A stretch of 54,978 bases of DNA from a virus (IMGVR_UViG_3300044627_004059:1-54978), one strand, 5' to 3'; counted from the stretch's first letter, positions 9,046 through 38,474 are shown. Made by a program: numbers and translations. Notes: a model not told the origin generated them from the letters alone.

Positions 9046-9750
9046 ATGACAAAAAAACAAAGAAAAAATTTAGAGTTAGTACATCCTGGTTTTGCTAACG
9101 GCGTTTCGATTCAATTAGCAACGAAGCAGACATTAGAAGGTCCAGATGCAACATTAACTGCAGAAGAAAAGCAAGATATTATTGATAAAGCTGCATATCA
9201 TTACGGGTTATTCTTAACAGCATTAGGCGTAAATTGGGAATCGGATCCTAATTCTTCAGATACTCCGCGTCGAGTAGCAAAAGCATATGTAAATGATTTA
9301 TGGGCTGGACGTTATAATCCAATGTCTGGTATTACTGCGTTTCCTAGTGACGGATATGATGGCATCGTATTTGAAGGAGGTATTCCTTTGACATCGATGT
9401 GTAGTCATCATCACCAGACAATTATGGGTACGGTGCATGTTGCATATATTCCAGGAGATAATAGCAATGTTATCGGATTAAGCAAATTGAATCGAGTAGT
9501 AGAACATTTTGGAAGACGCGGTGCTATTCAAGAACAATTGACAGTAGCAATTCATCACGCAATTGACGAACTTATCGAAAACAATAAAGGTGTAGCAGTA
9601 ATGATTGAAGCTACTCATAATTGTGTACAATGTAGAGGCGTTAAGCACGGCGGAGCTTCAATGAAAACGGCAAAATTATCCGGAGCATTTATGTCTGAAC
9701 CTTCTACTAGAAATGAGTTTTATGAATTCATCAAAGGTTATGGCGGATAA
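9046..9750 (+). CDS. folE: GTP cyclohydrolase I
   Basis: TPRRVAK, SMCSHH, GLSKLNRVV, IQEQLT, HNCVQCRGVK. Confidence 0.95.
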   Translation: MTKKQRKNLELVHPGFANGVSIQLATKQTLEGPDATLTAEEKQDIIDKAAYHYGLFLTALGVNWESDPNSSDTPRRVAKAYVNDLWAGRYNPMSGITAFPSDGYDGIVFEGGIPLTSMCSHHHQTIMGTVHVAYIPGDNSNVIGLSKLNRVVEHFGRRGAIQEQLTVAIHHAIDELIENNKGVAVMIEATHNCVQCRGVKHGGASMKTAKLSGAFMSEPSTRNEFYEFIKGYGG

Positions 9751-10672
9751 AACAGTTTGCATAGTTGGATTAGGTATTGGTAAATTATACGTTTCGGCGT
9801 GTAAATATTACAATTGGGATGTAATTACTGTAGATCAAAACAAAGCATTGAACGCAGATTACTTAAATGTAGACGATATTCCAAAAGACGTTCATATTGA
9901 TTTAGCTGTTATATGTACTCCCAATTATACGCACGAACGAGTAGCACGGCAATTAGGTTCGAGATATGTAACCAATATTGTAGTAGAAAAACCTGGATTT
10001 CAACACGCCGGATCTTGGTTAGGATTTCAACAACAATATCCTAAGTCTCGGTTATGGATGGTTAAAAACAATCAATTTAGAACTTTATTTGCGGATTTGC
10101 AAGGCAAAGAAATTGAAAAGATACAATTGTTTTGGTTGAATAAAAATAGAATTCCAGGAGCAGGAAGCTGGTTTACAGATAAGTATAAATCGTATAGTGG
10201 AGTATCTAGAGACTTAATGCCGCACTTGTTAAGTGTAGCACAAAGAACTTTAGGACACCGCATTGCGACAGAAGAGTTTACGGCACAATGTTATCGACAA
10301 TATGATATGTCGCAACTACAAAATGATTCTACATATGGTAATTATGATGCAAACGGAATCTATGATGTAGACGATTGTGCGTATTTTAAAAGCAAAACAA
10401 ACAACGTCGATATTGAATGTTTTGCTAGTTGGAAATTAGATATCGATGTAGACATCGTAGAATGGAGATTCTTTATTAAAGGAGGTTCTAATTTAACATA
10501 TGGCGTTGGATTATGTCCAGAATCTGCATATGAAACCATGTTACACGAATATATGTATGCAGATGAAGCTACATATCAACAACATCAAAAATATGATGTG
10601 GAAATACATTCAATTATTGATCACTTTGTTGAATCGGAACAAGTTCCATTATTTGCTAAACTATCTATATGA
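9740..10672 (+). CDS. Gfo/Idh/MocA-family NAD(P)-dependent oxidoreductase
   Basis: IVGLGIG Rossmann motif, ICTPNYTH, VEKP, DLMPHL. Start placed at ATG 9740, overlapping the folE end. Confidence 0.85.
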   Translation: MADKTVCIVGLGIGKLYVSACKYYNWDVITVDQNKALNADYLNVDDIPKDVHIDLAVICTPNYTHERVARQLGSRYVTNIVVEKPGFQHAGSWLGFQQQYPKSRLWMVKNNQFRTLFADLQGKEIEKIQLFWLNKNRIPGAGSWFTDKYKSYSGVSRDLMPHLLSVAQRTLGHRIATEEFTAQCYRQYDMSQLQNDSTYGNYDANGIYDVDDCAYFKSKTNNVDIECFASWKLDIDVDIVEWRFFIKGGSNLTYGVGLCPESAYETMLHEYMYADEATYQQHQKYDVEIHSIIDHFVESEQVPLFAKLSI

Positions 10673-11565
10673 AAACACGAATATTGCATAGCTACGGAAA
10701 TCGAGAAATCGAAGAATATGATTTTGTTTTAGGCGAAATGTCTGCAAATCAAATGTTAATCGAATCCGTATATACCGGCATTTGTAGAAGTGACATAGAT
10801 CAATATACGGGAAAAATTGCAATACCGTTTGGCCATTTCGGACATGAATCTTTAGGACGAGTAGTTAAGGTTGGAAAAAACATAAAAGAATTCCACGTAG
10901 GAGACTTAGTTGCATCGCGATGCGATCCGGCATTTTCTAAATGGTTTTATGCAGATGAAGAAAATACAGTACATGTAGATTCTATTTCACCTAACAATAT
11001 CATTGAACCAATTGCATGTTCCGTTAACATAGCATTGCAAGTACTTAAAACGAAATCTAAAAAACAAAGAATTTTATTTGTAGGCACCGGATTTGTTTCT
11101 AACATTACCGCACAATACATAAAACAAGTAGCCCCGAATTTAGACGTTTACGTAATTGGTAGTCACAACAAAGAACAATGGAATCGTTTAGGTGCCAAAT
11201 TTGTTACGTTTGATGAAATAGATTTTAAGTTTAAAACGATTGTAGAATTAAGCGGTAAATCTGAAAATTACGAAAAAGTATTATCAGTAGCCGATGCGGA
11301 AGCTGTGATATGTTTAGCAGCATCCATGGATAAACCAGTTACTACCAATTTTTGGAATTCATTATGGCAAAATCATACATACATATTTCCATCTCCTAGA
11401 ACGTCAGATTTTAAACGAAGTATGCGTATTGCAGCTAATACCGAGTTTGATTTAGATTGGGTATGGACTCACGAATATGATGCTAAAGACTTTAAACGAG
11501 CTTTTGCAGAAACTGAAACGAGAACCGGAGAAGGTCCATTTATACGTAGTTATTTAAAATGGTAA
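10669..11565 (+). CDS. Medium-chain (zinc-type) alcohol/polyol dehydrogenase
   Basis: GICRSD, GHESLGRVVKVG, GDLV, EPIAC, VGTGFV. Confidence 0.85.
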   Translation: MKTRILHSYGNREIEEYDFVLGEMSANQMLIESVYTGICRSDIDQYTGKIAIPFGHFGHESLGRVVKVGKNIKEFHVGDLVASRCDPAFSKWFYADEENTVHVDSISPNNIIEPIACSVNIALQVLKTKSKKQRILFVGTGFVSNITAQYIKQVAPNLDVYVIGSHNKEQWNRLGAKFVTFDEIDFKFKTIVELSGKSENYEKVLSVADAEAVICLAASMDKPVTTNFWNSLWQNHTYIFPSPRTSDFKRSMRIAANTEFDLDWVWTHEYDAKDFKRAFAETETRTGEGPFIRSYLKW

Positions 11566-11606: not shown

Positions 11607-12026
11607 ATGTTTGGAGAAAAATACTTTTATGGCAAAGAAGTAGAAGGTCCGTTAGCGGATGTTGATACTTGCTTTGTTCGCACCGAAATTCCCGGTAATT
11701 TTAAAGCATATCCCCACGTATACATGTGTATTAGTTATGTTGATATACTGATAAAGGAAGCGGATTGGAATAAAATAAACGACATCTTAGACACCAAAGC
11801 GATAGTTACATTAGAAATAACTCCGGAGCAATACAAAAAGATTCCTCCTACGATATTTAATCGTTGCAAAGTAATGTTATCATTAGATTGTCCAGAATTA
11901 GAATTTTTAAAGCAAAATGACATTGTAAAGATAGTTACAAGACCTTTTACTACTTACAATGTAACGAAATGCAATATGCAAACGTCGACAGCAGATGATT
12001 ATAAATTTGATACTAAACAAGGATAA
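11607..12026 (+). CDS. Hypothetical protein in the deazaguanine gene block
   Basis: 139-aa ORF (FYGKEVEG...) with its own upstream promoter-like motif; no family recognised. Confidence 0.6.
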   Translation: MFGEKYFYGKEVEGPLADVDTCFVRTEIPGNFKAYPHVYMCISYVDILIKEADWNKINDILDTKAIVTLEITPEQYKKIPPTIFNRCKVMLSLDCPELEFLKQNDIVKIVTRPFTTYNVTKCNMQTSTADDYKFDTKQG

Positions 12027-12029
12027 TAT

Positions 12030-12170
12030 ATGGCTAAAAAAACAATTACATTTTGCACTGGAGTAGGATTGAACATGTTCTTTCCGGAATATGTTACAAT
12101 TGAAGTTCCTATTAAAACAGATACAGAAATTAAAAAACCTAAAAAATCAAAGAAAAATGGCAATATTTAA
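12030..12170 (+). CDS. Small hypothetical protein (46 aa, not in the ORF track)
   Basis: MAKKTITFCTGVGLNMFFPEYVTIEVPIKTDTEIKKPKKSKKNGNI fills the gap exactly, follows AAGGA and overlaps the queD start. Confidence 0.55.
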   Translation: MAKKTITFCTGVGLNMFFPEYVTIEVPIKTDTEIKKPKKSKKNGNI

Positions 12171-12621
12171 ATCAACAAAATTATTTGATGGATACTCAAC
12201 GTGTTTCCGTCAATGGCGAGCAGATGGTACGCATTGTCAGTATCTTCACGGATATGCTGTATCGTTTAGAGTATGGTTTGAAGGAGAATTAGATCATAGA
12301 AATTGGGTATGGGATTTTGGTGGTATGAAACGAGCAAAAACTAAAATACTTGGAATGTCTCCAAAAGACTATTTTGCTTGGTTGCTAGATCATACAACAG
12401 TTGTAGCTAGCGATGACCCATACTTGGAGAATTTTCATCAAATGAATGACAATGGTATCATACAATTACGCATACTTCCAGCAACGGGATGTGAAAAATT
12501 TGCAGAGCATTTGTACAAAATAATCAACAAATTTTTAAAAGAAGAAACCGAAGGCAGAGTTAGAGCTATTAAAGTAGAAGTATACGAACACGAAAGAAAT
12601 TCGGCAAGTTATGAAGAGTAA
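12157..12621 (+). CDS. queD: 6-carboxy-5,6,7,8-tetrahydropterin synthase (QueD/PTPS family)
   Basis: RQWRA...HCQYLHGY, WVWDFGG, LDHT, GCEKFA, EHERNSA. Start moved to ATG 12157. Confidence 0.85.
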   Translation: MAIFKSTKLFDGYSTCFRQWRADGTHCQYLHGYAVSFRVWFEGELDHRNWVWDFGGMKRAKTKILGMSPKDYFAWLLDHTTVVASDDPYLENFHQMNDNGIIQLRILPATGCEKFAEHLYKIINKFLKEETEGRVRAIKVEVYEHERNSASYEE

Positions 12622-12955
12622 TGAACAATACATGTCCTTATATGATTATCGAGGTATATCATCGCGAGAAACCGGATTAGGTCAAAAAGTCTATGAATCT
12701 GCTAAGAAAAAAGATGTTCATGTTATATACACCGATTTACCTCAGGAACGAGCAACGACAGAATATAATCGAGTAGCTACATATCCTAAATCGTTTTTAG
12801 ATGAATATTTTGGTAAAACTATTAATACTAATATGTCTATAAACGATGTATATTTACAACTAGTTGAATTGAAGAACCAGTTTGATCAATTAATTTCTAA
12901 TTTAGAATCCGATGCTGCCGATAACGTTGAGCAAGATGATGACTTACCATTTTAA
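12611..12955 (+). CDS. Hypothetical protein with coiled coil and SSB-like acidic tail (DDDLPF)
   Basis: 114-aa ORF; C-terminus EQDDDLPF. Confidence 0.6.
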   Translation: MKSNEQYMSLYDYRGISSRETGLGQKVYESAKKKDVHVIYTDLPQERATTEYNRVATYPKSFLDEYFGKTINTNMSINDVYLQLVELKNQFDQLISNLESDAADNVEQDDDLPF

Positions 12956-12962
12956 GGAATTT

Positions 12963-13739
12963 ATGAAACCAGGAAGAATTACAGACTACAACAAAGTCTT
13001 ACCAATTGTTGAATTATATAGATGTGTACAGAGTGAAGGTTCTCGCTTCGGAAGACCTACAATTGCGGTAAGAACTACCGGATGCACTCATCGATGCTAC
13101 TTTGGAGAAGGAGGATGGTGCGACTCTTGGTATACAAGCATTCATCCGGAAAAAGGAACATTTACATTTAATGATATTGTAGATATTTATAATAAAAATC
13201 CACATATCAAAGAAATGATGTTAACGGGAGGTTCTCCTACAATGCATCCCGCTTTGGTTAATGAGTTGACGCATTTTGCACATGAAAGAGGCATTCTTAT
13301 TACTATTGAAACTGAAGGTTCGCATTTTATTGAGACTGATTATCCTATTGGGGTTATCTCTCTTAGCCCTAAGTTTAGCAATAGCGTTCCCGTTGTGGGC
13401 ATTTCTACGCCACAAGGCACGATTACGGATGAAAAAATGGTTACGCAACATAATAAATTTAGGTTGAACTATGACGCAATTGAAAAAATGATTGCATATC
13501 ATGCAGATTATCATTATAAACCAGTATGGGATGGTTCTTTAGAAAATTTACATGAAATTGAAGAATTTCGAGTAAAGTTAAATATTCCAAAAGATAAAAC
13601 ATATGTAATGCCGGCGGGAGATACAAGAGAAGAATTAATTAAAATGTATCCGTTAGTATTTGAAATGTGCGCACAATTTGGATATAACATGACAGGACGA
13701 GATCATATCATTGCATTTGATACTAAACGAGGAGTATAA
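12963..13739 (+). CDS. queE: 7-carboxy-7-deazaguanine synthase (radical SAM)
   Basis: CVQSEG, RTTGCTHRC...WCDS, LTGGSP, IETEG, SLSPK. Start moved to ATG 12963 after AAGGA. Confidence 0.9.
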   Translation: MKPGRITDYNKVLPIVELYRCVQSEGSRFGRPTIAVRTTGCTHRCYFGEGGWCDSWYTSIHPEKGTFTFNDIVDIYNKNPHIKEMMLTGGSPTMHPALVNELTHFAHERGILITIETEGSHFIETDYPIGVISLSPKFSNSVPVVGISTPQGTITDEKMVTQHNKFRLNYDAIEKMIAYHADYHYKPVWDGSLENLHEIEEFRVKLNIPKDKTYVMPAGDTREELIKMYPLVFEMCAQFGYNMTGRDHIIAFDTKRGV

Positions 13740-13797
13740 TGAATTGGACAACGACAACGACATTTGGCAATTACGAAATTAAATACATTATAACAAA

Positions 13798-14046
13798 ATG
13801 AAACAAGTACTTTATTTTTCAGCAGAATGGTGCGGACCATGCAAAATGATAAAACCGCAAATGCAACAATTACAGTCTCAAATGACAATTACATTTATCG
13901 ATGCTGATACTAGTCCAGATACGTGTAGCAAATACAACGTAAGAAATGTTCCTACATTGTTGGTAATTAAAAATGGTATGGAAGCAGGTCGATTAGTAGG
14001 CACTGCAATAACCAAAGATGCAGTAATAAATTTGTATAATAAATAA
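13798..14046 (+). CDS. trxA: Thioredoxin
   Basis: WCGPC active site and VPT cis-Pro motif. Confidence 0.92.
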   Translation: MKQVLYFSAEWCGPCKMIKPQMQQLQSQMTITFIDADTSPDTCSKYNVRNVPTLLVIKNGMEAGRLVGTAITKDAVINLYNK

Positions 14047-14058
14047 AAGGAATAAGTT

Positions 14059-14358
14059 ATGAATTGGAAACCAATTGGAGATCAAGTACTCCTTAAAGAA
14101 CTAGAAAAACAAGAAAAAACTAAAAGTGGTATCATCATGATGGCAGGTATGGATGAATACATTGAATGCGATGTGATGGCAGTAGGCGATGGGTTGTTTA
14201 CTCAAACTGGTAATAAAATACCAATGACAGTAAAAGTAGGAGACCGAGTAAAAATCTATTCCGGAAATTTAGGTTCGCAAAAGAAAGTACAATTAGAGTC
14301 CGACGAATTTGTTTTAGTTCGTGAACATGAAATTGCAATGATAAATACGCGTCCATGA
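14059..14358 (+). CDS. groES: Co-chaperonin GroES
   Basis: KPIGDQVL, KTKSGII, VMAVGDG, VKVGDRV, VREHEI. Confidence 0.9.
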   Translation: MNWKPIGDQVLLKELEKQEKTKSGIIMMAGMDEYIECDVMAVGDGLFTQTGNKIPMTVKVGDRVKIYSGNLGSQKKVQLESDEFVLVREHEIAMINTRP

Positions 14359-14591
14359 TTGAGACGTTAGGATGGGTCTGTACGGCATTGGTATTGATTG
14401 GTTTCATTGTCAATGCCAACGGACGTTTTCTTCCAGCATTAATTTGGTGGATTGTAGGCGATATTGGTTGGATTATATATGATATTTACATACATAATAT
14501 TAGCCATATGGTTTTAGGATTAGTTATAATAGCAATAAATAGTTACGGTATCATACGATACTATAAAAATAAACGATGTATCAAGCAATAA
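14355..14591 (+). CDS. Small membrane protein (about 3 TM helices)
   Basis: Hydrophobic 78-aa ORF overlapping both neighbours. Confidence 0.6.
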   Translation: MIETLGWVCTALVLIGFIVNANGRFLPALIWWIVGDIGWIIYDIYIHNISHMVLGLVIIAINSYGIIRYYKNKRCIKQ

Positions 14592-17080
14592 ATTACGATA
14601 AAAAAACAGGCACGATGCACGTCTGGGATGATGAAATTGGGCATCAAAAGTTTGCATTTAAACCATATGCATTTTTACCAGACGATAACGGTCAATATCA
14701 ATCATTAGATGGAACTAAACTCTCTAAAGTTTCAGGAAATCATAAAGACAATTCAAAAGCATTTGAATCGGATTTAAATGAAGAAGTTCGAACGCTTATT
14801 GATTTGTATTACGATTCAGATTTAGTTTCAAAAGGACATCGCGATTTCTTTTTTGATATTGAAACGGAACGAGATGAAAACGGATATTCTACTGCTGAAG
14901 AAGCACGTGCACGTATAACATCGATTGCATATTTCGATAAAGCCGGTAAAAGAAAAGGCGTATTGCTATTAGACGAAGAACGCAGACTTACACAAAAAAT
15001 ATCAGTTGATAATGTAGAAGTATTTGACAATGAGTCGAACATGTTAACTCGATTTATTAATTTATTTGCAGAAATACAACCTACCGTTATAACGGGATGG
15101 AATACGGATAATTACGATATTCCGTACATGGTTAATCGCATTAAAAAATTATTAGGATCTGGTGCTGTTAAAAAACTATCTCCTGCAGGTATTGTAGAAT
15201 GGAATAAACATCGAGAACGATACAAAATATTTGGAGTATCTAGTTTAGATTATTTAACATTATACAAGAAATTTACATATACAGAACTTGCAAATTATCG
15301 TTTAGATACGGTTGCTAAAAAAGAATTGGGTCGAGGTAAAGTTGAATACGAAGGAGATTTAAATTATTTGTTTGCAACTGACATTGAAAAATTCGTAGAA
15401 TATAACATGACCGACGTTGATTTGGTTTATGAATTAGACGAAAAGTTACAAATGCTTAATCTTGCAAGAACTATATGCCATAAAGGACACGTTCCGTATG
15501 AAGATGTATATTATGCATCTAAATACTTGGATGGTGCTGCTATTGTAGATTTAAAACGTAAAGGATTGGTTGCTCCACCTAAAGCATTTAGATTTGTTGA
15601 AGATGAATCAATCGAAGATTTAGCAGGTGCATATGTAATGGCTCCCGTTCCTGGATTGTATAAATGGATATATGACTTAGATTTAACTTCTCTGTATCCA
15701 AGCATCATCATGACATTAAATATATCTCCGGAAACTAAAGTAGGAGTAATAGAAAAATGGAATCAAGAAGTATTGTTAAAGCCAGAACCGCAACAAGTTA
15801 AATTTACAGATGGAACGTTTGTACAAAACGTTAAACAATGGTTAACCGATAATAAATATACAGTAGCTAGTAACGGTACAGTGTATCGAACCGATATTAA
15901 AGGATTTTTACCGGCAATATTAGAAACATGGTTTGATGAACGCGTTACATATAAAAATAAACGCGATGAATATGAAGTTGGTTCTGAAGATTATAAATTT
16001 TACGATGCATTACAAAATACACAAAAAGTATTGCTTAATTCATTTTATGGAGTATTAGGATTAAAAACGTTTCGTTTTCACGATTTAGATAACGCAGGTG
16101 CTATTACGGCAACTGGACAAAATGTTATTAAATTTTCACAACGAGTAATCAATTCGTATTATACTAAAGAAATTGGTAAGTCGCATTTTATTAATGCAAC
16201 CGGAGGACAAGCAGAATTTGCATTTTATACAGATACAGATTCCGCATTTATTTCGGCTCTTCCTTTGATACAACATAGATATCCGAATTGCGATGAATCC
16301 GATGAAAAGTTCATGGTAGATAAAACCAATGAAATTGCATCCGAAATACAACGTCATGTAAATCGTATGTATGATCAATATGCTTTGGCATTTCATAACA
16401 CCGCAACACATCGTTGGCAAATTAAACAAGAATATGTTGCAAAATCTGGTTTATGGATTGCCAAGAAACGATATGCACAATGGGTAATTTACAAAGAAGG
16501 AAAACCTACGGATAAATTAGATATAAAAGGTTTAGATGTAGTTCGTTCATCATTTCCAGAAGATTTCAAAATGATAATGAAAGAAACACTTTGGCATATT
16601 CTTAAAGAAAAAGATAAAACAGAAACATCGAATATGATTCATGCATTTAAAAAACAAATACAATCTTCCGATGTATTAAATGTAATGAAAAACTCCGGAG
16701 TAAAAGAAATATCAAAATTCATAAAAGGACGAAAGCCATTCACCGGATATCTTAAAGGAACTCCCGCACATGTTAAGGCTGCAATTAATTTTAACGATTT
16801 CTTGCATATGTACGAAGTTAAAGATGTAACTGCTATACAAAATGGAGAAAAGGTGAAATGGGCATATTTAGCAGATAATCCATATGGAATGGATACGATG
16901 GCACTTCGAGGATATCAAGATCCTAAACCTATCATAGAATTTGTAGAACAATACATAGACAGAAATAAAATCTTTGAAAAAGAATTGAAAAATAAATTGG
17001 ATGATTTTTATGCGGCTATGAATTGGGGCGCATTTCCAGAAAATAATTCAGTTGCAAAGTTTTTTAGTTTTGGAAAATAA
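14576..17080 (+). CDS. Family B DNA polymerase (T4 gp43-like)
   Basis: Exo I FDIET, Exo II GWNTDNYDIPY, DLTSLYPSI, KVLLNSFYG, YTDTDS, KKRY. Confidence 0.96.
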   Translation: MYQAINYDKKTGTMHVWDDEIGHQKFAFKPYAFLPDDNGQYQSLDGTKLSKVSGNHKDNSKAFESDLNEEVRTLIDLYYDSDLVSKGHRDFFFDIETERDENGYSTAEEARARITSIAYFDKAGKRKGVLLLDEERRLTQKISVDNVEVFDNESNMLTRFINLFAEIQPTVITGWNTDNYDIPYMVNRIKKLLGSGAVKKLSPAGIVEWNKHRERYKIFGVSSLDYLTLYKKFTYTELANYRLDTVAKKELGRGKVEYEGDLNYLFATDIEKFVEYNMTDVDLVYELDEKLQMLNLARTICHKGHVPYEDVYYASKYLDGAAIVDLKRKGLVAPPKAFRFVEDESIEDLAGAYVMAPVPGLYKWIYDLDLTSLYPSIIMTLNISPETKVGVIEKWNQEVLLKPEPQQVKFTDGTFVQNVKQWLTDNKYTVASNGTVYRTDIKGFLPAILETWFDERVTYKNKRDEYEVGSEDYKFYDALQNTQKVLLNSFYGVLGLKTFRFHDLDNAGAITATGQNVIKFSQRVINSYYTKEIGKSHFINATGGQAEFAFYTDTDSAFISALPLIQHRYPNCDESDEKFMVDKTNEIASEIQRHVNRMYDQYALAFHNTATHRWQIKQEYVAKSGLWIAKKRYAQWVIYKEGKPTDKLDIKGLDVVRSSFPEDFKMIMKETLWHILKEKDKTETSNMIHAFKKQIQSSDVLNVMKNSGVKEISKFIKGRKPFTGYLKGTPAHVKAAINFNDFLHMYEVKDVTAIQNGEKVKWAYLADNPYGMDTMALRGYQDPKPIIEFVEQYIDRNKIFEKELKNKLDDFYAAMNWGAFPENNSVAKFFSFGK

Positions 17081-17098
17081 GATTTATTTTCTTATATT
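17070..17098 (+). promoter_or_regulatory. Class 1 promoter-like motif (TTG-N20-TATATT) upstream of the cytidylyltransferase-dpdL-GT-dpdA block
   Basis: Recurrent motif; ATG lies 5 nt downstream. Confidence 0.62.
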
Positions 17099-17103
17099 AT
17101 AGT

Positions 17104-17517
17104 ATGAAACAAGGAGTTATAGCTGGCAATTTTGATGTAATACATCCGGGTTATATTAAAATGTTTAAAGAATGTAAAGAAAATTGCGACGATCTTGTAG
17201 TATTATTACATACCGATCCGACAATAGAACGACCGGAAAAATGTAAACCTATTTTATCCGTTGAAGAACGGCAAGAAATGTTATTTGAATTAGGTATTTC
17301 GGCAGTTATTCCATACACATATGAAAATGAATTATATGAATTACTTAAACATGGAAATTACGATGTTAGATTCTTAGGAGACGATTATATAGGAAAGTCG
17401 TTTACAGGGGATGATTTAGATATTCCAATACATTACTTAAATAGAGACCACGGTTGGTCTACAACTAAATTTAAAAAGTTAATAGCAGATGAAGTACAGC
17501 GTAGTAGTAACATTTAG
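17104..17517 (+). CDS. Cytidylyltransferase-family nucleotidyltransferase (TagD / RfaE domain II-like)
   Basis: GNFDVIHPGY (HxGH-like), KPILSVEER, LGDDY, RDHGWSTT. Confidence 0.85.
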   Translation: MKQGVIAGNFDVIHPGYIKMFKECKENCDDLVVLLHTDPTIERPEKCKPILSVEERQEMLFELGISAVIPYTYENELYELLKHGNYDVRFLGDDYIGKSFTGDDLDIPIHYLNRDHGWSTTKFKKLIADEVQRSSNI

Positions 17518-17839
17518 TATCGAAGGGTTTCATTGTTGGCCAGATGCCAAAGATGTATTTCCAGAAGTAGCATTTTTATCATACAGGCATCGGCATATGT
17601 TTGGATTTCGATGTTATGCATCCGTAACACATACAGATCGCGATGAGGAATTTATCTTGTTGAATCGCAAAATACAAAAAGCATTGCGAATTGGGTTTAC
17701 ATCTCCAATAACTAATGTATTAGAATTTGATTCAATGTCATGTGAAATGATCGGAGAATGGTTGTTAAATGAATTTCCTGCATTATACAAAGTTGAAGTT
17801 TGGGAAGATTGGGAAAATGGAGCAATTGTAGAAAAATGA
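17489..17839 (+). CDS. QueD-paralogous T-fold protein, probable CDG decarboxylase (DpdL-like)
   Basis: FHCWP...LSYRHRHMF matches the LxxxHRHxF motif I recall for DpdL; also DRDEEFI, SCEMI, EDWENGA. Lies two genes upstream of the TGT-fold gene. Confidence 0.7.
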   Translation: MKYSVVVTFSIEGFHCWPDAKDVFPEVAFLSYRHRHMFGFRCYASVTHTDRDEEFILLNRKIQKALRIGFTSPITNVLEFDSMSCEMIGEWLLNEFPALYKVEVWEDWENGAIVEK

Positions 17840-18864
17840 AAATATTTTTAGTAGACATAGAATCGGTACCGACTCGTTATACTTGCGAATGGAAAACTCA
17901 TGTACCACAATTGCTTCGCAATAACGGATTTGATGTTGTAGTTGTAGAAGGAGATAATTCAATTCCGGAAGCAACAACTCCAGGAGCCTTTTTAAACTTT
18001 GGCGGTACTAATATGTATAAAGCAACGCAAGTACATCAATTATCGGAAATGTTTACCAAAGGCGAAATTGAAGCAGGCGATCATATTATTTTTACAGATG
18101 CTTGGCATCCAGGCATTATCAATGTAAAATACATGAGTGAACTCCTAAATATTCCCGTTGTACTGCATGGACTTTGGCACGCGGGTTCATATGACCCGTA
18201 TGACTTTTTAGGGCGTCTCGTGGGAAGTAAACCATGGATTCGCCATGCTGAAACATCGATGATGGAATGTTATAACTACAATTGGATAGCAACTCGAGCA
18301 CATTATGACTTAATCGATAAAACGTATGATGTTATATTTGATACGAGATGGCATAGAACCGGTTGGCCAATGGAATATACAAAAGATTTAATTGCACCGA
18401 AACTTTGGACTCTTAAAGAAAACATTATAGTATTTCCACACCGAATTGCTCCAGAGAAGCGTTTAGATTTATTTCAAAGATTAGCAAAGCATCCAGATTT
18501 GCAACATTATCAATTTTGTGTTGCTATGGAAATGAATTTAAACAAACAAGAATATCATGAATTGCTTCAGCGAGCTAAATTTGCAGTATCATTTGCAGAT
18601 CAAGAAACATTGGGAATATCAATGTATGAGTCAGCGTGTGCAGGAGCATGTCCCATAGTTCCTAATCGGTTATCATATACGGAAATGTATGATCCGATGT
18701 TTAAGAGAGCTGACAGCGTTGCTAGTGCAGCAAATGCAATATTAGAATACGAAGACCAAGCAATGGATCAACCAATAGCACAATTGGTCGAAACATTACA
18801 TGAAAACTTTTTTTCAGCAACACAATTAATTAATAAACTAAAGGAATACGATGAGCGAAGCTAA
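17836..18864 (+). CDS. GT-B fold (GT4-like) glycosyltransferase
   Basis: FPHRIAPEKR and QETLGISMYES (Ex7E) signature. Start moved to ATG 17836 (ATGA overlap with the upstream stop). Confidence 0.85.
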   Translation: MKIFLVDIESVPTRYTCEWKTHVPQLLRNNGFDVVVVEGDNSIPEATTPGAFLNFGGTNMYKATQVHQLSEMFTKGEIEAGDHIIFTDAWHPGIINVKYMSELLNIPVVLHGLWHAGSYDPYDFLGRLVGSKPWIRHAETSMMECYNYNWIATRAHYDLIDKTYDVIFDTRWHRTGWPMEYTKDLIAPKLWTLKENIIVFPHRIAPEKRLDLFQRLAKHPDLQHYQFCVAMEMNLNKQEYHELLQRAKFAVSFADQETLGISMYESACAGACPIVPNRLSYTEMYDPMFKRADSVASAANAILEYEDQAMDQPIAQLVETLHENFFSATQLINKLKEYDERS

Positions 18865-20107
18865 AAGATTCATATACTTTCCATCTTTATCTGCAGGATC
18901 TATGGTATCTGCATTTAAGAAAGATATGAAATTTGCAAATGGAGATCCAGTTAAGTTTTTTGATTCCCGTTATCCAAAAGAATGGAGACATCCGTATTTT
19001 TTGATTACAGCGGGACATCATTACAAAAAAATGGATTTTCGAGATCAACTAGGATTAGAAAAAGATGTATTAGTATTTGGAGATTCGGGAGGATACCAAA
19101 TAGCAACTGGGGCTTTGCCTTATAGCAATGAATTACGAGAAAAGATTTTTCATTGGTTAGAAGCTAATAGCGATGTAGCAGCTAATTTAGATATTCCACC
19201 TAAAACGAAATATAGAAATAAATTTGCAGAATGTGCGGATATTAGTTTTGATAACTTTGCTTGGTTTGAAAAGCATCAAAGTGGTAAGACTAAATTCTTA
19301 AACATGTTGCAAGGATCTAACTCAGCAGAGTATGCGTGGTGGTACAATAAATTTAAGCATTTTGATTTTCAAGGATGGGCAATTGGAGGTCCGCAACGAT
19401 TAGTAGATTTTATGTTTGCTATTTCATTGCTTCTTAAAGAAAAAGAATTTGAAAATAAAAGAAACCAATACGTTCACTTATTAGGTATTAGTAAGATTTC
19501 GGATTTCTTTATTTTAGCAACATTGCAAAAATTAATGAACAAATATTATGGAAATAGAATCTATATAACTACGGATTCATCGTCTCCAGGACAATATCCG
19601 GTGTTTGGAACATATTTGCATTCTACTAATTATAAAACGCAAACATTCTCGGAATTATATTTTCCAAAGAATGCGGAATATCGAAGAAAGAATCATGTTA
19701 AACAAGGACGAGTAGGAATCGATATGGATTTGACTCAACATGTTCCGTGTAGCTTAGGATGTCCTGCTTGTAGCGATTTTACTTATGAATTGTTAGGTGG
19801 ACAAACTCCGACAGGATTAGATAGATATTCGCAAGAAGCTATGCCAAGAATGGTGGTTCATAATACGCATTTATATGTAGATGCGGCAAATGAAATCAAT
19901 CAAATGGTAGATAGTCACGTTGAATTGTTAGAAACGGTGGTACCTAAAGATTTGTATGATGTAATATTATCATTGCATGAAATGTTTGCAGATCCAGATG
20001 CAGCTCCGCATATCTACGAAAAATACATTAAAACATATAAAAAATTCGGCGGTGATAGTATATCTACTACGGATGCTGAAAACTTTAATAAATTCTTTAA
20101 ATTTTAA
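18851..20107 (+). CDS. dpdA: tRNA-guanine transglycosylase-fold protein, probable DNA-guanine transglycosylase DpdA
   Basis: DSGGYQ, LDIP, QG, AIGG, HLLG, DSSS and Zn site CSLGCPAC...HN. Context of folE/queD/queE and replisome genes favours a DNA substrate (inference). Confidence 0.78.
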   Translation: MSEAKRFIYFPSLSAGSMVSAFKKDMKFANGDPVKFFDSRYPKEWRHPYFLITAGHHYKKMDFRDQLGLEKDVLVFGDSGGYQIATGALPYSNELREKIFHWLEANSDVAANLDIPPKTKYRNKFAECADISFDNFAWFEKHQSGKTKFLNMLQGSNSAEYAWWYNKFKHFDFQGWAIGGPQRLVDFMFAISLLLKEKEFENKRNQYVHLLGISKISDFFILATLQKLMNKYYGNRIYITTDSSSPGQYPVFGTYLHSTNYKTQTFSELYFPKNAEYRRKNHVKQGRVGIDMDLTQHVPCSLGCPACSDFTYELLGGQTPTGLDRYSQEAMPRMVVHNTHLYVDAANEINQMVDSHVELLETVVPKDLYDVILSLHEMFADPDAAPHIYEKYIKTYKKFGGDSISTTDAENFNKFFKF

Positions 20108-20118
20108 TCAGGATAAAA

Positions 20119-20829
20119 ATGGAAAAAAGTAAATTACAATCATTAATCAATCGTTATTATTTAGCAGGTAATTGTGAAGCTGTTAAATTGAAAGAAAATG
20201 CAGAAGGAATTAATTGCGAATTGATTGATATGGATCAAACGGTTGTAGGAAAAATACAATGGAAAACAACTCCGTTCATGAAAGGTGAATTAGGAATCAA
20301 TCATACCGGAGCATTAATTAAAATGTTGTCTGCATTAGGCGAAAACATAGAAATTGATGTAAAAGATGCAGCAGGTAAAAATTATGCAATGAAAATTAGC
20401 GAAGGTAAAACAGAAGCGACGTTCATGTTAGCAGATACAACGGTTATTCCTGCAGTTCCATCAATCAATGCAGAACCTGCATATCAAATTGAAATTCCAG
20501 TTAATGAAGAATTTATAACTAGATTTATCAAAGCAAAAAATGCGTTACCTGATGCAAAGAATTTTGCAGTACAAGTAAAAAGCGGAACAATTCGTTTTAT
20601 TATTAATTATAGCACGGTTAATGCGGATAATATTACATTTGAAGTAGGATCAACAACAGCAGCTGATATGGAACCTGTTTGTTTCTCTGCAGATAAATTG
20701 AAAGAAGTACTTGTAGCAAACAGAGGTGATTCTGGTAAGCTTCACGTATCTCCAGATGGGTTAGCTCGTATTGAATTTACTGGAGCTGATTTTGATTCGG
20801 CATATTGGTTAGTAATGTTGCAAAATTAA
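20119..20829 (+). CDS. DNA polymerase sliding clamp (gp45/PCNA-like)
   Basis: 236 aa, two-domain beta-rich pattern ending GLARIEF...YWLV; close to clamp-loader genes. Confidence 0.75.
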   Translation: MEKSKLQSLINRYYLAGNCEAVKLKENAEGINCELIDMDQTVVGKIQWKTTPFMKGELGINHTGALIKMLSALGENIEIDVKDAAGKNYAMKISEGKTEATFMLADTTVIPAVPSINAEPAYQIEIPVNEEFITRFIKAKNALPDAKNFAVQVKSGTIRFIINYSTVNADNITFEVGSTTAADMEPVCFSADKLKEVLVANRGDSGKLHVSPDGLARIEFTGADFDSAYWLVMLQN

Positions 20830-20831
20830 TT

Positions 20832-21260
20832 ATGATAGTAGCTGTAGTAAATAAATCAGACAATGCACTTCCTGAATATGAAACACCGGGAAGTGCCGGT
20901 TTAGATGTTCGATGTACCCATGCATTTGCGATTGATCCGACAGGACGTACATTAGTACCAACCGGATTGTTTGTAGAAATACCAAAAGGTTATGAAATAC
21001 AAGTAAGACCTAGAAGTGGTTTAGCACTTAAGCATGGCATTACGGTATTAAATACGCCAGGAACTATCGATGCAGATTATCGTGGAGAAATTGGAGTAAT
21101 TTTAATTAATCATGGTCCTAGGACAGTTGAATTTGCAAAAGGAGATCGCATCGCACAATTGGTTTTATGCAAAGTAGAACATATCGAATGGTTGCCAACG
21201 GGAGCATTAACTGGAACAAAGCGAGGAGAAAAAGGATTCGGTTCAACGGGAGGAAAATAA
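20832..21260 (+). CDS. dut: dUTPase (trimeric)
   Basis: SAGLD, RPRSGLA, GTIDADYRGE, RIAQL, RGEKGFGSTG. Confidence 0.96.
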   Translation: MIVAVVNKSDNALPEYETPGSAGLDVRCTHAFAIDPTGRTLVPTGLFVEIPKGYEIQVRPRSGLALKHGITVLNTPGTIDADYRGEIGVILINHGPRTVEFAKGDRIAQLVLCKVEHIEWLPTGALTGTKRGEKGFGSTGGK

Positions 21261-21266
21261 ATATTT

Positions 21267-22193
21267 ATGTTTAATACACAAGAAAACACACTTTGGGTTG
21301 AATCGTTTCGCCCAGATACATTAGAAGGATACATTGGTAATGAACACATCATTGAAAAGGTTCGTATTTTTATTAATAACGGTGACGTACCTCATTTGTT
21401 GTTTTATGGTACCGCCGGCACTGGCAAGACCACGTTGGCAAAAATTATCGCCAATAGTGTGGATGCCGATGTCATGTATATAAACGCATCCGATGAAAAC
21501 TCAGTTGATGCAGTACGAGATAAAATTAAACGTTATGCATCGACAGTTGGATTTCGTCGTTGGAAGATTATCATTTTAGATGAAGCAGATTATTTGACTC
21601 CAAATGCACAAGCAGCATTGCGTAATCTTATGGAGACTTATAGCAAAACTACGCGTTTCATATTAACATGTAATTATGTTGAAAAGATTATTGATCCAAT
21701 TCAATCTCGTTGTCAGACATTTGCAATTACGCCTCCTAATAAAACGGATGTAGCAAAACGATTAGTGCAAGTATTAGAAGAAAATCAAGTTCAATACGAT
21801 ATCAAAGATATTGCTGCAATTATCAATGCATCATATCCAGACATTCGCCGTGCTATTAATGCATCGCAAGCATCCGTAGTTAATGGAGTATTGCAATTAG
21901 ATAAAGCAAGTGCAATTCAAGCAAATTACATGACTGAAATATTGGATGTTTTAAAAAATCCAAAAGACAAAAAAGCATCATTTGGTAAAATTAGACAAAT
22001 TATCGCGGATAGCAAAGTTAGAGATTTTACTCCAATGTATACTTTTTTATTTGATAATCTAGATGAATTTGCACATGGCCATATTGCTCCTTGTATATTA
22101 ATTATCGCAGAATCGCAATACAAAGATGCTAGTGTAGTTGATAAAGAAATTAACATAATGGCAATGTTTGTCAATATTTTAGGAGAAATATGA
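21267..22193 (+). CDS. Clamp loader AAA+ subunit (RFC small / gp44-like)
   Basis: WVESFRP, GTAGTGKT, INASDE, LDEAD, SRC. Confidence 0.93.
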   Translation: MFNTQENTLWVESFRPDTLEGYIGNEHIIEKVRIFINNGDVPHLLFYGTAGTGKTTLAKIIANSVDADVMYINASDENSVDAVRDKIKRYASTVGFRRWKIIILDEADYLTPNAQAALRNLMETYSKTTRFILTCNYVEKIIDPIQSRCQTFAITPPNKTDVAKRLVQVLEENQVQYDIKDIAAIINASYPDIRRAINASQASVVNGVLQLDKASAIQANYMTEILDVLKNPKDKKASFGKIRQIIADSKVRDFTPMYTFLFDNLDEFAHGHIAPCILIIAESQYKDASVVDKEINIMAMFVNILGEI

Positions 22194-22408
22194 GTAAATT
22201 AAATGTAAATATCGGTCCAAACGATATGCAACCGATACAATGCAAAGAATGTGACGGATTATACTTTCGTCAAGTAATGGCAATCAACAAAGTATCAAAA
22301 TTCTTAACCGGTGGCGATAAAGATACAATGGTACCGGTACCAGTATTTAGATGCGACGATTGTGGTGCTATTCCGGAAGAGTTTCAACCGATTAAAATGA
22401 AGAAATAA
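22190..22408 (+). CDS. Small zinc-ribbon protein
   Basis: CKEC...CDDC pairs. Confidence 0.65.
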   Translation: MSKLNVNIGPNDMQPIQCKECDGLYFRQVMAINKVSKFLTGGDKDTMVPVPVFRCDDCGAIPEEFQPIKMKK

Positions 22409-22620
22409 TGTCCATACCATATCATAAGTCTAATATAACTATAGTATTTAAGACATCAAATCGTAGCAATGCAAAAACAAAAATGAAAACTCTTAGAAAC
22501 AAGAGTATCGATGATGTATTAGAACGAAAGATACCAGGAATTCCGGATAATGCAGTTATTTTGGAAATTGCTATGGGAGAATTATTCGAAACCAAATTGA
22601 AACACAAATATAAACTATAA
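22408..22620 (+). CDS. Hypothetical protein
   Basis: 70-aa ORF in tight operon packing. Confidence 0.55.
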   Translation: MSIPYHKSNITIVFKTSNRSNAKTKMKTLRNKSIDDVLERKIPGIPDNAVILEIAMGELFETKLKHKYKL

Positions 22621-22621
22621 A

Positions 22622-23074
22622 ATGGCAGAAGAAAAAAAGAGTGCAACTATTTTTGATTTAATCAACGGAGTAACTAGCAAAAAACGAGAATGGTCGAAAT
22701 GGTCCGAAACGGATCAATCAAAGTTTTCGGTTTATATGGTTAATCGTTACTTGTCAATGCGGCAGGATCTGATAGACGTAATTAATGAGTTACAGAAATA
22801 TACAATTGGAGTATTACGTCCCAAAGAAACATATCGCCTTTATCATGATTTATTACCTACAAACAATAACTTTGCAAAGTATGTTAAAGGCAAGAAAGAA
22901 GACAAATTTTCAGATAAATTGGTTGAACAAATTGCAGAACATTATAAAGTTGGCAAATCTGAAGCAATCGATTACGCCGATTTATTAAATCAAGATCAAT
23001 GTGCTCATCTTCTGTCACTTTATGGTTATACCGAAAAAGAAATAAAAACAATGATTAAAGGAGTACGTAAATGA
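22622..23074 (+). CDS. Probable clamp loader small subunit (gp62-like)
   Basis: FDLING...FSVYMVNRYLSM...IAEHYKV..SEA..Y pattern and position near the RFC gene. Confidence 0.6.
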   Translation: MAEEKKSATIFDLINGVTSKKREWSKWSETDQSKFSVYMVNRYLSMRQDLIDVINELQKYTIGVLRPKETYRLYHDLLPTNNNFAKYVKGKKEDKFSDKLVEQIAEHYKVGKSEAIDYADLLNQDQCAHLLSLYGYTEKEIKTMIKGVRK

Positions 23075-23307
23075 GTGTGAATACTCAATCTCATTATAAA
23101 GGCAAAGATAGTTTGTATAAATTTGCAGAAGATTGGAAATTAAACAGTTATGAATTTGATATCATTAAAAGAATTGTTAGATGTCGACATAAAGGATCAT
23201 TTTCGGAAGATTTAGAAAAAACCAAAGATTTAATCGATATCTACTTGCAAGAACAAGTTCATAATTACGTAAAATTTGAACCTGATTACTTGGAACTTAA
23301 AAAATAA
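23071..23307 (+). CDS. DUF3310-like protein
   Basis: SHY...IIKRIVRCRHKG...EDLEK pattern. Confidence 0.6.
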   Translation: MSVNTQSHYKGKDSLYKFAEDWKLNSYEFDIIKRIVRCRHKGSFSEDLEKTKDLIDIYLQEQVHNYVKFEPDYLELKK

Positions 23308-23318
23308 ATTCATATATT
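23290..23318 (+). promoter_or_regulatory. Class 1 promoter-like motif (TTG-N20-TATATT) upstream of the exonuclease
   Basis: Recurrent motif; ATG lies 6 nt downstream. Confidence 0.62.
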
Positions 23319-23324
23319 TAATGT

Positions 23325-24284
23325 ATGAAATCTGGAAATTATATCAATCCTGTATACAAGCTATCATTACGAGATGCTAATACGGTACCTAGAAAAATAT
23401 CTTATTCGCAATGGTCAATGTATGATCGTTGTCCGTTATCTTGGAAATTAGCATATATCGACGGATTGGCTCCATTTCAAGCATCAATTGATACTTGCTT
23501 CGGCACGGCATTTCATGAAACGTTTCAATACTTTATTGAAGTTATGTATACTGATTCAGTTAAACGTGCTGAAGCATTAGATTTACGTGGCATATTAACT
23601 AACAAGCTTCGCGAAGAATATGCTAAATGCGTACAAGAAACCGGAGGACATTTTTCCAATCCATTACAGTTAGCAGAATATTTAGAAGATGGTGTTGCTA
23701 TATTGGAATGGTTTAAGAAACGTCGAAAACAATATTTTTCAACTAAGGATTGGGAATTAATAGGTATCGAAGTTGAACTATGTACTCCGGCATCGACAAA
23801 CAATCCTTCAGTATATCTTTACGGATTTATAGATTTGGTTATACGTCACGTACCTACTAATACGATACATGTATTTGATATTAAAACGAGCAGATCTGGT
23901 TGGAATAAATATCAAAAAGCAGATCCTACAAAAGCAGCACAATTGGTAATTTATAAAAATAAATTTTCTGAACAATTTGGTATTCCAAAAGAAAATATTG
24001 TAGTTGAATTCTTCATCGTTAAACGAAAAATGGTTGAAGAGTCAATGTTTCCACAAAAACGCATTCAATTATTCAAACCTAGTTCAGGTACCGTTACACA
24101 ACGCAAAGTTCAGCGCCAAATAGATGATTTTGTAGAACATTGTTTCGATTCAGAAGGCAATAAACTTGCAGATAAACCATATATGGCCATTTCTGGAAAG
24201 GGTGATAAAAATTGCAAGTATTGTCCATTTAAAACTGATTACGTAAATTGTCCTCGCGAAAATAGGATTCGTACGGAAAAATAA
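23325..24284 (+). CDS. PD-(D/E)XK exonuclease (RecB/AddB/Cas4-like, probable Fe-S)
   Basis: SYSQ...CP, GTAFHE, GFIDL, DIKT, QLVIY, CKYCPF...C. Confidence 0.85.
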   Translation: MKSGNYINPVYKLSLRDANTVPRKISYSQWSMYDRCPLSWKLAYIDGLAPFQASIDTCFGTAFHETFQYFIEVMYTDSVKRAEALDLRGILTNKLREEYAKCVQETGGHFSNPLQLAEYLEDGVAILEWFKKRRKQYFSTKDWELIGIEVELCTPASTNNPSVYLYGFIDLVIRHVPTNTIHVFDIKTSRSGWNKYQKADPTKAAQLVIYKNKFSEQFGIPKENIVVEFFIVKRKMVEESMFPQKRIQLFKPSSGTVTQRKVQRQIDDFVEHCFDSEGNKLADKPYMAISGKGDKNCKYCPFKTDYVNCPRENRIRTEK

Positions 24285-24296
24285 TTATAATATAGT

Positions 24297-24515
24297 ATGA
24301 TTGAATTTAAACATAAACACACATACGTATATAAGTTTGAACTACAAAAACGTAGTCCGTTTGTAGGGTGGGAACAATGTGAATATGTTTTATTAACTGA
24401 TATTAGCGATCCCAATCACAAAGAAAATCGAAAACTATTAGAAACTGGATTGCGCCTTGCATATAATAATCACGTTCCAAAAGGTGTTAGATTTTCATAC
24501 GAGAAAACCAAATGA
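24297..24515 (+). CDS. Hypothetical protein
   Basis: 72-aa ORF with an upstream TATAAT-like element. Confidence 0.55.
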   Translation: MIEFKHKHTYVYKFELQKRSPFVGWEQCEYVLLTDISDPNHKENRKLLETGLRLAYNNHVPKGVRFSYEKTK

Positions 24516-30489: not shown

Positions 30490-30499
30490 TAAAAATAAT

Positions 30500-32016: not shown

Positions 32017-32017
32017 T

Positions 32018-32046
32018 TTGGTTAACTGTAAAAAAATGATTATATT
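32018..32046 (+). promoter_or_regulatory. Class 1 promoter-like motif (TTG-N20-TATATT) upstream of the NDP-sugar tailoring genes
   Basis: Recurrent motif; ATG lies 6 nt downstream. Confidence 0.62.
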
Positions 32047-32052
32047 CATAAT

Positions 32053-33231: not shown

Positions 33232-33241
33232 TATAGAATAT

Positions 33242-33625: not shown

Positions 33626-33628
33626 CTT

Positions 33629-34042: not shown

Positions 34043-34058
34043 ATTTTTTAGAAGAATT

Positions 34059-34700: not shown

Positions 34701-34710
34701 TATTACTACA

Positions 34711-38446: not shown

Positions 38447-38474
38447 AAAAAAATTTTTTTATTTTAAAAAATAA

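Follow-up and report, generated by a model that had tools for sequence, protein, structure and literature searches.

Layout of the four-gene cluster

We analyzed a viral DNA of 54,978 nucleotides (IMGVR_UViG_3300044627_004059:1-54978), hereafter the window, which is an entire IMG/VR record rated as approximately 32% complete. The subject is a glycosyltransferase (GT) gene at 17836-18864, the third gene of a four-gene cluster at 17104-20107 that also encodes DpdL and DpdA of 7-deazaguanine DNA modification. The features of the cluster and its borders are as follows.

14576..17080, + strand: family B DNA polymerase (PolB), upstream neighbor (PF00136, 7e-38; C-terminal KFFSF tail)
17070..17098, + strand: sigma-70-like motif, TTGGAA-17 nt-TATATT (9 of 12 positions match)
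17104..17517, + strand: small cytidylyltransferase-fold nucleotidyltransferase, TagD / RfaE-domain-II-like, 137 amino acids (PF01467, phrog_7878, TIGR00125)
17489..17839, + strand: DpdL, QueD-paralogue family, proposed 7-carboxy-7-deazaguanine (CDG) decarboxylase, 116 amino acids (motif, identity to a phiST protein, phrog_17812)
17836..18864, + strand: GT-B, GT4-like retaining-type glycosyltransferase, 342 amino acids (AlphaFold2 model, structural neighbors, conserved residues)
18851..20107, + strand: DpdA-type guanine transglycosylase, 418 amino acids (model with the tRNA-guanine transglycosylase (TGT) fold; C-terminal KFFKF tail)
20119..20829, + strand: sliding-clamp-like processivity factor, downstream neighbor (phrog_223, 7.4e-9; no Pfam match)

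The sequence check confirmed four overlapping open reading frames (ORFs), as claimed in a first-pass annotation of this DNA, including all three overlaps: 29 nt at 17489-17517, an ATGA at 17836-17839, and 14 nt at 18851-18864. The GT gene lies directly between dpdL and dpdA, as that annotation had it, and the separation of about 5 kb that it gave from the main GT island agrees with a sugar and GT island that begins at 24947, 4.8 kb downstream. Its labels for DpdL, the GT, and DpdA are upheld by motif and identity, by a GT-B model, and by a TGT fold, respectively. The longest frame of the GT ORF begins with TTG at 17800; we took the ATG at 17836 as the start because homologues of 341-349 amino acids align from residue 1 of the ATG form. 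A blastn search of 17000-20200 against GenBank phages gave a single match of 259 nt, which was confined to the cytidylyltransferase gene.

All ORFs of at least 90 amino acids that were accepted as genes are on the + strand, and PolB, the four genes, the clamp-like gene, dUTPase, and the clamp loader form a co-directional unbroken run. The four genes had been described as one transcription unit behind a single promoter at 17070-17098. The motif exists, but motifs of this kind are no more frequent than expected by chance (53 in 13700-24600, 10.9 kb, against 56.9 ± 7.1 in shuffled sequences), and its first hexamer falls within the last codons of PolB (stop at 17080). The cluster is separated from PolB by 23 nt and from the clamp gene by 11 nt, and no terminator-like site was found at either border. 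Because the run from PolB to the clamp loader is tight and co-directional without terminators at the borders, a separate four-gene unit is possible but unsupported, and the transcription unit could be larger than four genes.

The glycosyltransferase

PF00534 matched only the C-terminal half of the GT, at 25.0 bits against a cut-off of 26.4, and no Pfam family besides PF00534 and PF13524 was found at E 0.1. Precomputed PF00534 matches are present on many homologues with 67-84% identity. Clustering at 90% identity divides the family into at least 8000 groups; at 50% identity, 1150 representatives matched with E <= 1e-3.

The AlphaFold2 model, built from a 59-sequence alignment, showed a GT-B fold with a pLDDT of 96.2. 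The nearest structures were retaining GT4/GT5-type enzymes, with Z values of 21-27 over 284-321 residues at 10-15% identity. Sucrose-phosphate synthase gave Z 26.6 in the VIA search (6kih, root mean square deviation 3.2 over 316 residues), and the other neighbors were BshA (Z 25.4), MshA (24.3), GlgM (23.6), glycogen synthase (23.0), LmbT (22.7), and the tetrahydrobiopterin glucosyltransferase BGluT (21.3-22.3). Among the viral models of BFVD, a protein of phage ACP17 was nearly superposable on the GT (TM 0.92), and the others were generic family-1 transferases.

GT4-type enzymes are marked by an E-x7-E pair and by basic phosphate-binding residues in the C-terminal domain. The C-terminal domain of the GT has E257 and E265 as an E-x7-E-type pair and R203 and K208 as a basic pair. 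H115, R203, K208, and E265 were invariant in the 59 sequences (down to 30% identity), and E257 was present in at least 90% of them. Since these residues fit the donor-binding and E-x7-E pattern, the GT looks like an active, catalytically intact retaining-type GT-B enzyme, judging from the alignment and the model. The N-terminal acceptor domain has a conserved set of its own (E9, R14, Y15, W19, F52, K62, Q65, D88, W90, Y99, and H115). A prediction of the GT-DpdA complex (score 0.00, mark 0.32) counts neither for nor against binding, and no fused GT form of 600-2000 amino acids was found at E <= 1e-10 among 1567 candidates, which is weak evidence.

DpdL and DpdA

The DpdL signature LxxxHRHxF, which replaces the CxxxHGH of QueD, has been described by Cui, Hutinet et al. 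(PMC10516641). The window protein carries this signature as LSYRHRHMF, is 40% identical over 117 amino acids to phiST gp040 (CGPG_00067; E 6e-26), and matches phrog_17812 at 1e-24. H15, H34, H36, H48, E54, C85, and E86 were invariant in a 17-sequence alignment across which LxxxHRHxF is kept; the PA5oct protein has F for R, as also given in the supplement of PMC10516641. No Pfam match was found at E 0.1, nor a match to PDB sequences at E <= 1 in a profile search, and hhalign against the QueD of the window gave a probability of 28% over 38 columns. For phiST DpdL, a QueD-like fold with an HHpred value of 99.89% has been reported (PMC10516641). In the account of that paper, CDG decarboxylation by DpdL is a proposal, for which heterologous trials failed, and DpdL is modeled as acting on the free base. 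The genome of the window has the gene content expected of a DpdL carrier, with DpdA, FolE, QueD, and QueE and no QueC match in the approximately 32% complete record.

In regards to DpdA, sequence matches were faint (arcTGT, 1.4e-3), and the score for the NCBIfam DpdA equivalog NF041059 was 15.1 bits against a cut-off of 200, which places the protein outside this bacterial equivalog as judged by its sequence. The profile gave no match to PDB sequences at E <= 1. DSGG(F/Y)Q is the motif of the catalytic Asp in TGT. An alignment of 14 sequences, 23-89% identical to the window protein, showed no variation at D78-S79-G80-G81-x-Q83, D114, D242, and H337. The AlphaFold2 model had a pLDDT of 65.7 and a pTM of 0.74, and its top 50 Foldseek matches in the PDB were all TGT, arcTGT, or DpdA (E ~1e-7), with the DNA preQ0 insertase DpdA 7ui4 at rank 5. 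Two proteins named in table DS1 of PMC10516641 are similar to it: one of PA5oct, given there as DpdA3 (E 3e-13), and one of ACP17, given as DpdA2 (E 2e-8). From its family and context, we infer that DpdA exchanges guanine in DNA.

PolB ends in AKFFSFGK (17045-17080) and DpdA in NKFFKF (20072-20107), and only these two among the + strand ORFs of at least 60 amino acids have a KFFxF-type tail within the last 14 residues. The dpdA gene abuts the processivity-factor-like gene at 20119-20829. Distant relatives have a phrog_12062 protein just upstream of DpdA, and the clamp-like protein of the window weakly matches phrog_12062. The tail common to PolB and DpdA and the position of dpdA next to clamp-like genes suggest that the sliding clamp is a docking site for DpdA.

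Linkage of the GT to DpdL and DpdA

We fetched 73 IMG/VR loci by similarity to the GT, many of which are near-duplicates; the counts measure how often DpdL and DpdA accompany the GT and not the reverse. DpdL was present in 70 of the 73 loci, and the other three end 2 nt upstream of the GT. DpdA was present in 68, and the other five are truncated on the DpdA side. The median gap between DpdL and the GT was 7.5 nt. The 48 close relatives (66-84% identity) have the order PolB, a protein like the 139-amino-acid protein of the window (u139-like), the cytidylyltransferase (in part of the loci), DpdL, GT, DpdA, and clamp, and the 25 distant relatives (42-53% identity) have the order clamp-like, DpdA, a family designated c4, DpdL, GT, and FolE.

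Among GenBank phages, a relative of the GT was found in 23 records, a relative of DpdL in 29, and both in 18, which come from unrelated hosts and include Sinorhizobium phage Phosso, Acidovorax phage ACP17, the PA5oct group, Xanthomonas phages BUDD and X1, Burkholderia phage BCSR5, and Synechococcus phage BUCT-ZZ01. We inspected PA5oct, Phosso, ACP17, and BUDD. The GT adjoins DpdL in all four, among FolE, QueD, and QueE, and it adjoins DpdA except in Phosso. The gene order varies: DpdL-GT-DpdA in the window, DpdA-GT-DpdL in ACP17, PA5oct, and BUDD, and, in Phosso, DpdL-GT with DpdA farther away. For both PA5oct and ACP17, the GT lies exactly between the accessions listed as DpdA and DpdL in DS1 of PMC10516641. 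Eleven DpdL records, phiST among them, had no GT match.

Common occurrence of GT homologues in phages lacking dpdA, which the first-pass annotation had named as evidence against its reading, was not observed. Five of the 23 records (PhiXhv-12, PhiXhv-15, PhiXhv-16, Ep026, and Ep032, from Xanthomonas and Erwinia) had a GT match without a DpdL or DpdA match; we rejected them as counter-examples since they are remote paralogues (27% identity over 63%). PhiXhv-12, the only one of the five that was inspected, has a gene context of a GlmS-like gene and a deacetylase gene.

A contig scan of prokaryotic assemblies seeded with the single GT protein gave 11 pattern matches and no relatives, and a scan seeded with a 12-row GT alignment gave 36 loci. 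DpdA was within 8 kb of the GT in 32 of these bacterial and archaeal loci, and DpdL in 24. Ten loci, mostly on alphaproteobacterial chromosomes, have the GT and DpdA without DpdL, and these also have neither FolE nor QueD within 8 kb. The Devosia and Shimia loci have a weak YhhQ-like gene directly upstream (PF02592, 26.3 and 24.7 bits, cut-off 27.2). Several contigs of metagenome-assembled genomes among the 36 loci carry PolB and resemble phage DNA.

These linkages strongly support, at the level of gene order, the GT as a fixed member of the deazaguanine system. The first-pass annotation had placed the GT in this pathway rather than in virion glycosylation, and DpdL, DpdA, or both stand beside the GT orthologues in all assessable phage loci and in the bacterial islands. 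An acceptor unrelated to the pathway (for example, a protein of the virion or the host, a glycan of the envelope, or a hydroxymethyl-pyrimidine-like base), with the GT placed here by the packing of early genes, is very improbable. The at least six further GT-like genes and the large sugar pathway at 24947-41465 speak for it, as they imply large-scale glycosylation by the phage, and other base-modification genes could lie outside the record, which covers 32% of the genome. However, the linkage persists in unrelated phages whose gene orders are completely reshuffled, and it is also seen in bacterial islands that lack phage replication genes. The record has no thymidylate-synthase-like hydroxymethylase.

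The alphaproteobacterial islands (L087:7441-9041, L096:7489-10551, and L107) have integrase or resolvase genes and unknown proteins nearby. ABC-3C genes are present in the Shimia locus, and a HEPN gene and an integrase in the Magnetospirillum locus. These islands may be a bacterial modification (perhaps restriction) system that uses the same GT.

The cytidylyltransferase gene

The first gene of the cluster scored above the cut-offs of PF01467 (41 bits, cut-off 21) and TIGR00125 (44.1 bits, cut-off 27.7) and matched phrog_7878 at 5e-31. The equivalog scores of TagD (49.9 bits vs 165.4) and RfaE-II (42.6 bits vs 181.5) were not reached. The signature of the cytidylyltransferase family is HxGH; the window protein and 35 of 35 relatives in the fetched loci have HPGY in its place. 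The gene occurred in 35 of the 48 close loci; the 25 distant loci all lack it. In eight of the 13 close loci without the gene, the upstream flank spans 3.3 kb or more and includes both PolB and DpdL, so that the absence is a true one, and these eight retain the GT and DpdA as well. It was also found in one of the 36 prokaryotic loci (L084) and in 121 phage records, mainly of Streptomyces phages and cyanophages, with no Pseudomonas, Xanthomonas, or Acidovorax phage in the organism tally.

The first-pass annotation had suggested that this enzyme may supply the nucleoside diphosphate-linked donor of the GT, which would be a CDP- or ADP-linked sugar or polyol. The adjacency and overlap of the genes in this clade (35 of 48 close loci) and the family scores are in its favor. 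We nevertheless regard this role as improbable: the gene is gone from the eight assessable close loci with an intact module and from 25 of 25 distant loci, it is nearly absent from the assembly loci, most of its relatives among phages belong to Streptomyces phages and cyanophages and not to the other phages with the GT and DpdL, its scores are far under the TagD and RfaE-II equivalog cut-offs, and its motif is HPGY. On the basis of these occurrences, the cytidylyltransferase is a clade-specific optional passenger outside the conserved core set, and it is connected to this GT only by adjacency within one clade.

Pathway genes and companions

The genes for the synthesis of the base and their companions lie upstream of PolB.

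9046..9750, + strand: FolE, GTP cyclohydrolase I, first step to the deazaguanine base (PF01227, 9e-45)
9713..10672, + strand: GFO/IDH/MocA-like oxidoreductase (PF01408, 4.9e-8)
10669..11565, + strand: oxidoreductase like zinc-dependent alcohol dehydrogenase (PF08240, 5.1e-12)
11607..12026, + strand: 139-amino-acid protein, probable member of a family accompanying the module
12091..12621, + strand: QueD, 6-carboxytetrahydropterin synthase family (PF01242, 1.5e-14)
12912..13739, + strand: QueE, 7-carboxy-7-deazaguanine synthase, radical SAM (TIGR03365, 4.9e-15, below cut-off; PF04055, 1e-5)

Copies of QueE in related loci are 70-87% identical. No QueC match was found anywhere in the record, an absence that is provisional because only about 32% of the genome is covered.

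The two oxidoreductase genes (9713-11565) overlap and are located between FolE and QueD. Homologues of the pair occur between DpdA and DpdL in 8 of the 25 distant loci; the 48 close loci show none within the flanks covered. The pair is an optional companion of the module. In 41 of the 48 close loci, a homologue of the 139-amino-acid protein is encoded in the interval from PolB to DpdL, and c4 is present in 23 of the 25 distant loci; ACP17 has a c4-family gene for 133 amino acids. A modest profile-profile match (probability 64%, E 6e-5, 71 columns) suggests that the two are probably one family that travels with the module. Searches of Pfam, PHROG, PDB sequences, and the ESM Atlas gave no lead for the 139-amino-acid family, and a c4 profile matched no PDB sequence at E <= 1. 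The family has the motifs GxEVE, TLF, and HIY (window 11607-12026; L048:4794-5300 and relatives).

Relatives have further genes near the module, namely a phosphoribosyltransferase, a HIT-domain protein, a 2-oxoglutarate (2OG)-Fe(II) oxygenase directly after the GT, and an epimerase-like gene, the last in PA5oct (L048:8697-9236, L048:10329-10745, L051:7103-7615, and L001:7800-8315); the window has no phosphoribosyltransferase. Sugar-tailoring genes recur near the module, as this epimerase-like gene in PA5oct and as a C-methyltransferase gene and a cupin gene in L056.

The sugar island of the window (24947-41465, 16.5 kb) encodes at least six GT-like proteins (two GT1-type, two GT2, one TOD1/MUCI70-like, and one PLOD-GT-like), several methyltransferases including a sugar C-methyltransferase, two FdtA-like isomerases, a DegT aminotransferase, RmlD-like and epimerase/dehydratase proteins, and a 2OG oxygenase. 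Unusual phage cargo comprises a PAS-domain protein (41844-42962), a SET-domain protein (47641-48042), a ClpS-like adaptor (50052-50369), and a GroES homologue (14059-14358). The record opens (1-693) within a frame that weakly matches family A DNA polymerase (PF00476, 2.7e-7, below cut-off), 14 kb upstream of the complete family B polymerase at 14576-17080.

Proposed reaction path and acceptor of the GT

Starting from the observed gene identities, folds, conserved catalytic-type residues, and gene linkage, we propose the following path. FolE, QueD, and QueE would make CDG by a QueC-less route, and DpdL would convert CDG into 7-deazaguanine, as proposed in PMC10516641. The TGT-fold DpdA would swap 7-deazaguanine for guanine in DNA. 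The GT would use a nucleotide sugar to glycosylate the deazaguanine base, either as the free base before the action of DpdA or already in DNA, and the phage DNA would then bear a sugar-carrying deazaguanine instead of plain 2′-deoxy-7-deazaguanine (dDG). From the genes around the GT, we infer the deazaguanine base as the acceptor and DNA as the place where the product ends up. A QueC-less 7-deazaguanine DNA-modification system in which the GT glycosylates the deazaguanine base has, in our estimate, about an even chance of being correct.

Regarding the acceptor, the GT accompanies DpdA also in loci that lack DpdL and the biosynthetic genes, so the shared element is the 7-deazaguanine handled by DpdA and not a pterin. 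The linkage to DpdA in bacteria fits a free-base or a DNA acceptor alike. Either acceptor is possible, and we lean slightly toward the free base because most of the structural neighbors act on small molecules, the isoelectric point is acidic, and the linkage to DpdL is close.

The GT could instead act on a pathway intermediate or cofactor, producing a pterin glycoside from the FolE/QueD branch, in the manner of cyanobacterial BGluT on tetrahydrobiopterin, or a transient glycosyl-CDG that aids DpdL or DpdA, and the DNA would end with plain dDG or with its 7-carboxy counterpart, dCDG. BGluT structures are among the neighbors (9v0l, Z 22.3; 5zes, Z 21.6), most of the top structural neighbors have small-molecule acceptors, FolE and the oxidoreductases are close by, and the GT family is acidic. 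The tightest linkage in phages is to DpdL, for which the free base is the modeled substrate (PMC10516641). However, BGluT ranks below generic GT4 enzymes (Z 22 vs 26.6) and thus shows no specific likeness, and phiST makes dDG without a GT. The 10 bacterial loci with the GT and DpdA and no DpdL, FolE, or QueD within 8 kb indicate that the GT is tied to the transglycosylase and not to pterin chemistry. We consider an intermediate or cofactor as the acceptor unlikely, though less so than a donor-supplying cytidylyltransferase.

Several points weigh against the proposed glycosylation of deazaguanine in DNA. The linkage counts are not independent events because the loci were selected by the GT and many are near-duplicates. 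The GT family is acidic (isoelectric point 5.2-6.3), a weak hint against a DNA acceptor, and the closest solved structures mostly use small-molecule acceptors (BshA, MshA, LmbT, BGluT, and sucrose-phosphate synthase). The first-pass annotation had called for a comparison of the model with the T4 DNA glucosyltransferases AGT and BGT; the GT-B fold was borne out, whereas AGT and BGT were not among the best 50 matches of Foldseek PDB, VIA, or BFVD, although a shared GT-B fold is possible. Plain 7-deazaguanine has no hydroxyl group, and a sugar would need N2, O6, a ring carbon, or the carboxyl group of CDG. The GT is not needed for dDG itself because phiST attains full dDG without one, as described in PMC10516641. 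The literature search found no nucleoside mass data for phages that carry the GT, and the record is only approximately 32% complete.

For PA5oct DNA, a 2025 preprint (PMC12191111) describes resistance to several restriction enzymes whose sites contain G and gives the chemistry as not determined. Expression of dpdL and dpdA of ACP17 alone in E. coli gave no dDG, and the authors allow that further enzymes may be needed (PMC10516641); a requirement for the GT may account for this result. A wider proposal is that glycosylated 7-deazaguanine is present in the DNA of these phages, of PA5oct and ACP17, and of some alphaproteobacterial islands, produced with the GT4-like enzyme and a clamp-riding DpdA and possibly extended by the unusual-sugar pathway of the phage. 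We advance it tentatively, with somewhat less confidence than glycosylation of the base in the window.

Comparison with known systems

Our literature search found no paper that links this GT to DpdA or DpdL and nothing on glycosylated deazaguanine in DNA. Within the literature searched, DpdL is named only in the NAR paper (PMC10516641) and its preprint; "glycosyl" occurs 0 times in the text of that paper and "glycosyltransferase" 0 times in its supplement. The 7-deazaguanine modifications of DNA described there have eight small side groups. If the proposed path is correct, it would join the themes of deazaguanine and sugar; the product would represent a new class of hypermodified purines and the first case of a purine analogue with a sugar in DNA. 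There would also be consequences for restriction evasion, for modification-dependent nucleases such as END, for sequencing artefacts, and for enzyme tools. END nucleases target PA5oct (PMC12191111), and the prediction of a sugar-bearing deazaguanine is testable in phages already cultured.

The window resembles the DpdL/DpdA3 system of phiST (FolE, QueD, and QueE), as described in PMC10516641, in its QueC-less CDG pathway, its LxxxHRHxF DpdL, and its transglycosylase of the TGT superfamily. It differs in that phiST has a MazG-like gene and an ATPase gene beside DpdL and no GT, whereas in the window the GT is fixed between dpdL and dpdA and the 139-amino-acid family travels along. Moreover, the DpdA of the window has 418 amino acids and no BLASTP similarity to the 259-amino-acid DpdA3 of phiST.

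Sugar decoration of DNA bases is known for hydroxymethyl-pyrimidines. Like T4 AGT, which is a retaining enzyme, and BGT, the GT is a phage-encoded GT-B enzyme whose presumed target is a non-canonical base from a dedicated phage pathway. Unlike them, it has no Pfam match to either family (E <= 0.1), and neither is in its best 50 structural matches. In contrast to the hydroxymethylcytosine system of T4, the base here is an analogue of a purine that offers no hydroxymethyl group for attachment, and DNA is a putative acceptor. With the GT4 small-molecule enzymes (BshA, MshA, LmbT, BGluT, and sucrose-phosphate synthase), the GT shares the two-domain fold and the E-x7-E-type pair E257/E265, but it is only 10-15% identical to them, has acceptor-domain residues of its own, and stands in a DNA-modification gene context.

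In animal tRNA, mannosyl- and galactosyl-queuosine carry a sugar on the cyclopentenediol of a 7-deazaguanine derivative inserted by TGT. The proposed product would likewise have a sugar on a TGT-placed 7-deazaguanine derivative, but in DNA and not in tRNA, and the cyclopentenediol of queuosine requires QueC, for which the record has no match. HuiG of the huimycin pathway is described as a GT that acts on a free preQ0-derived 7-deazapurine base with UDP-GlcNAc as the donor (bioRxiv 10.64898/2026.04.15.718813). Unlike the GT of the window, HuiG belongs to actinobacterial secondary metabolism, and the clusters of that paper are described as chosen without dpdA. HuiG, which we liken to the GT by this description and not by sequence, is a precedent for a 7-deazapurine base as the acceptor of a glycosyltransferase.

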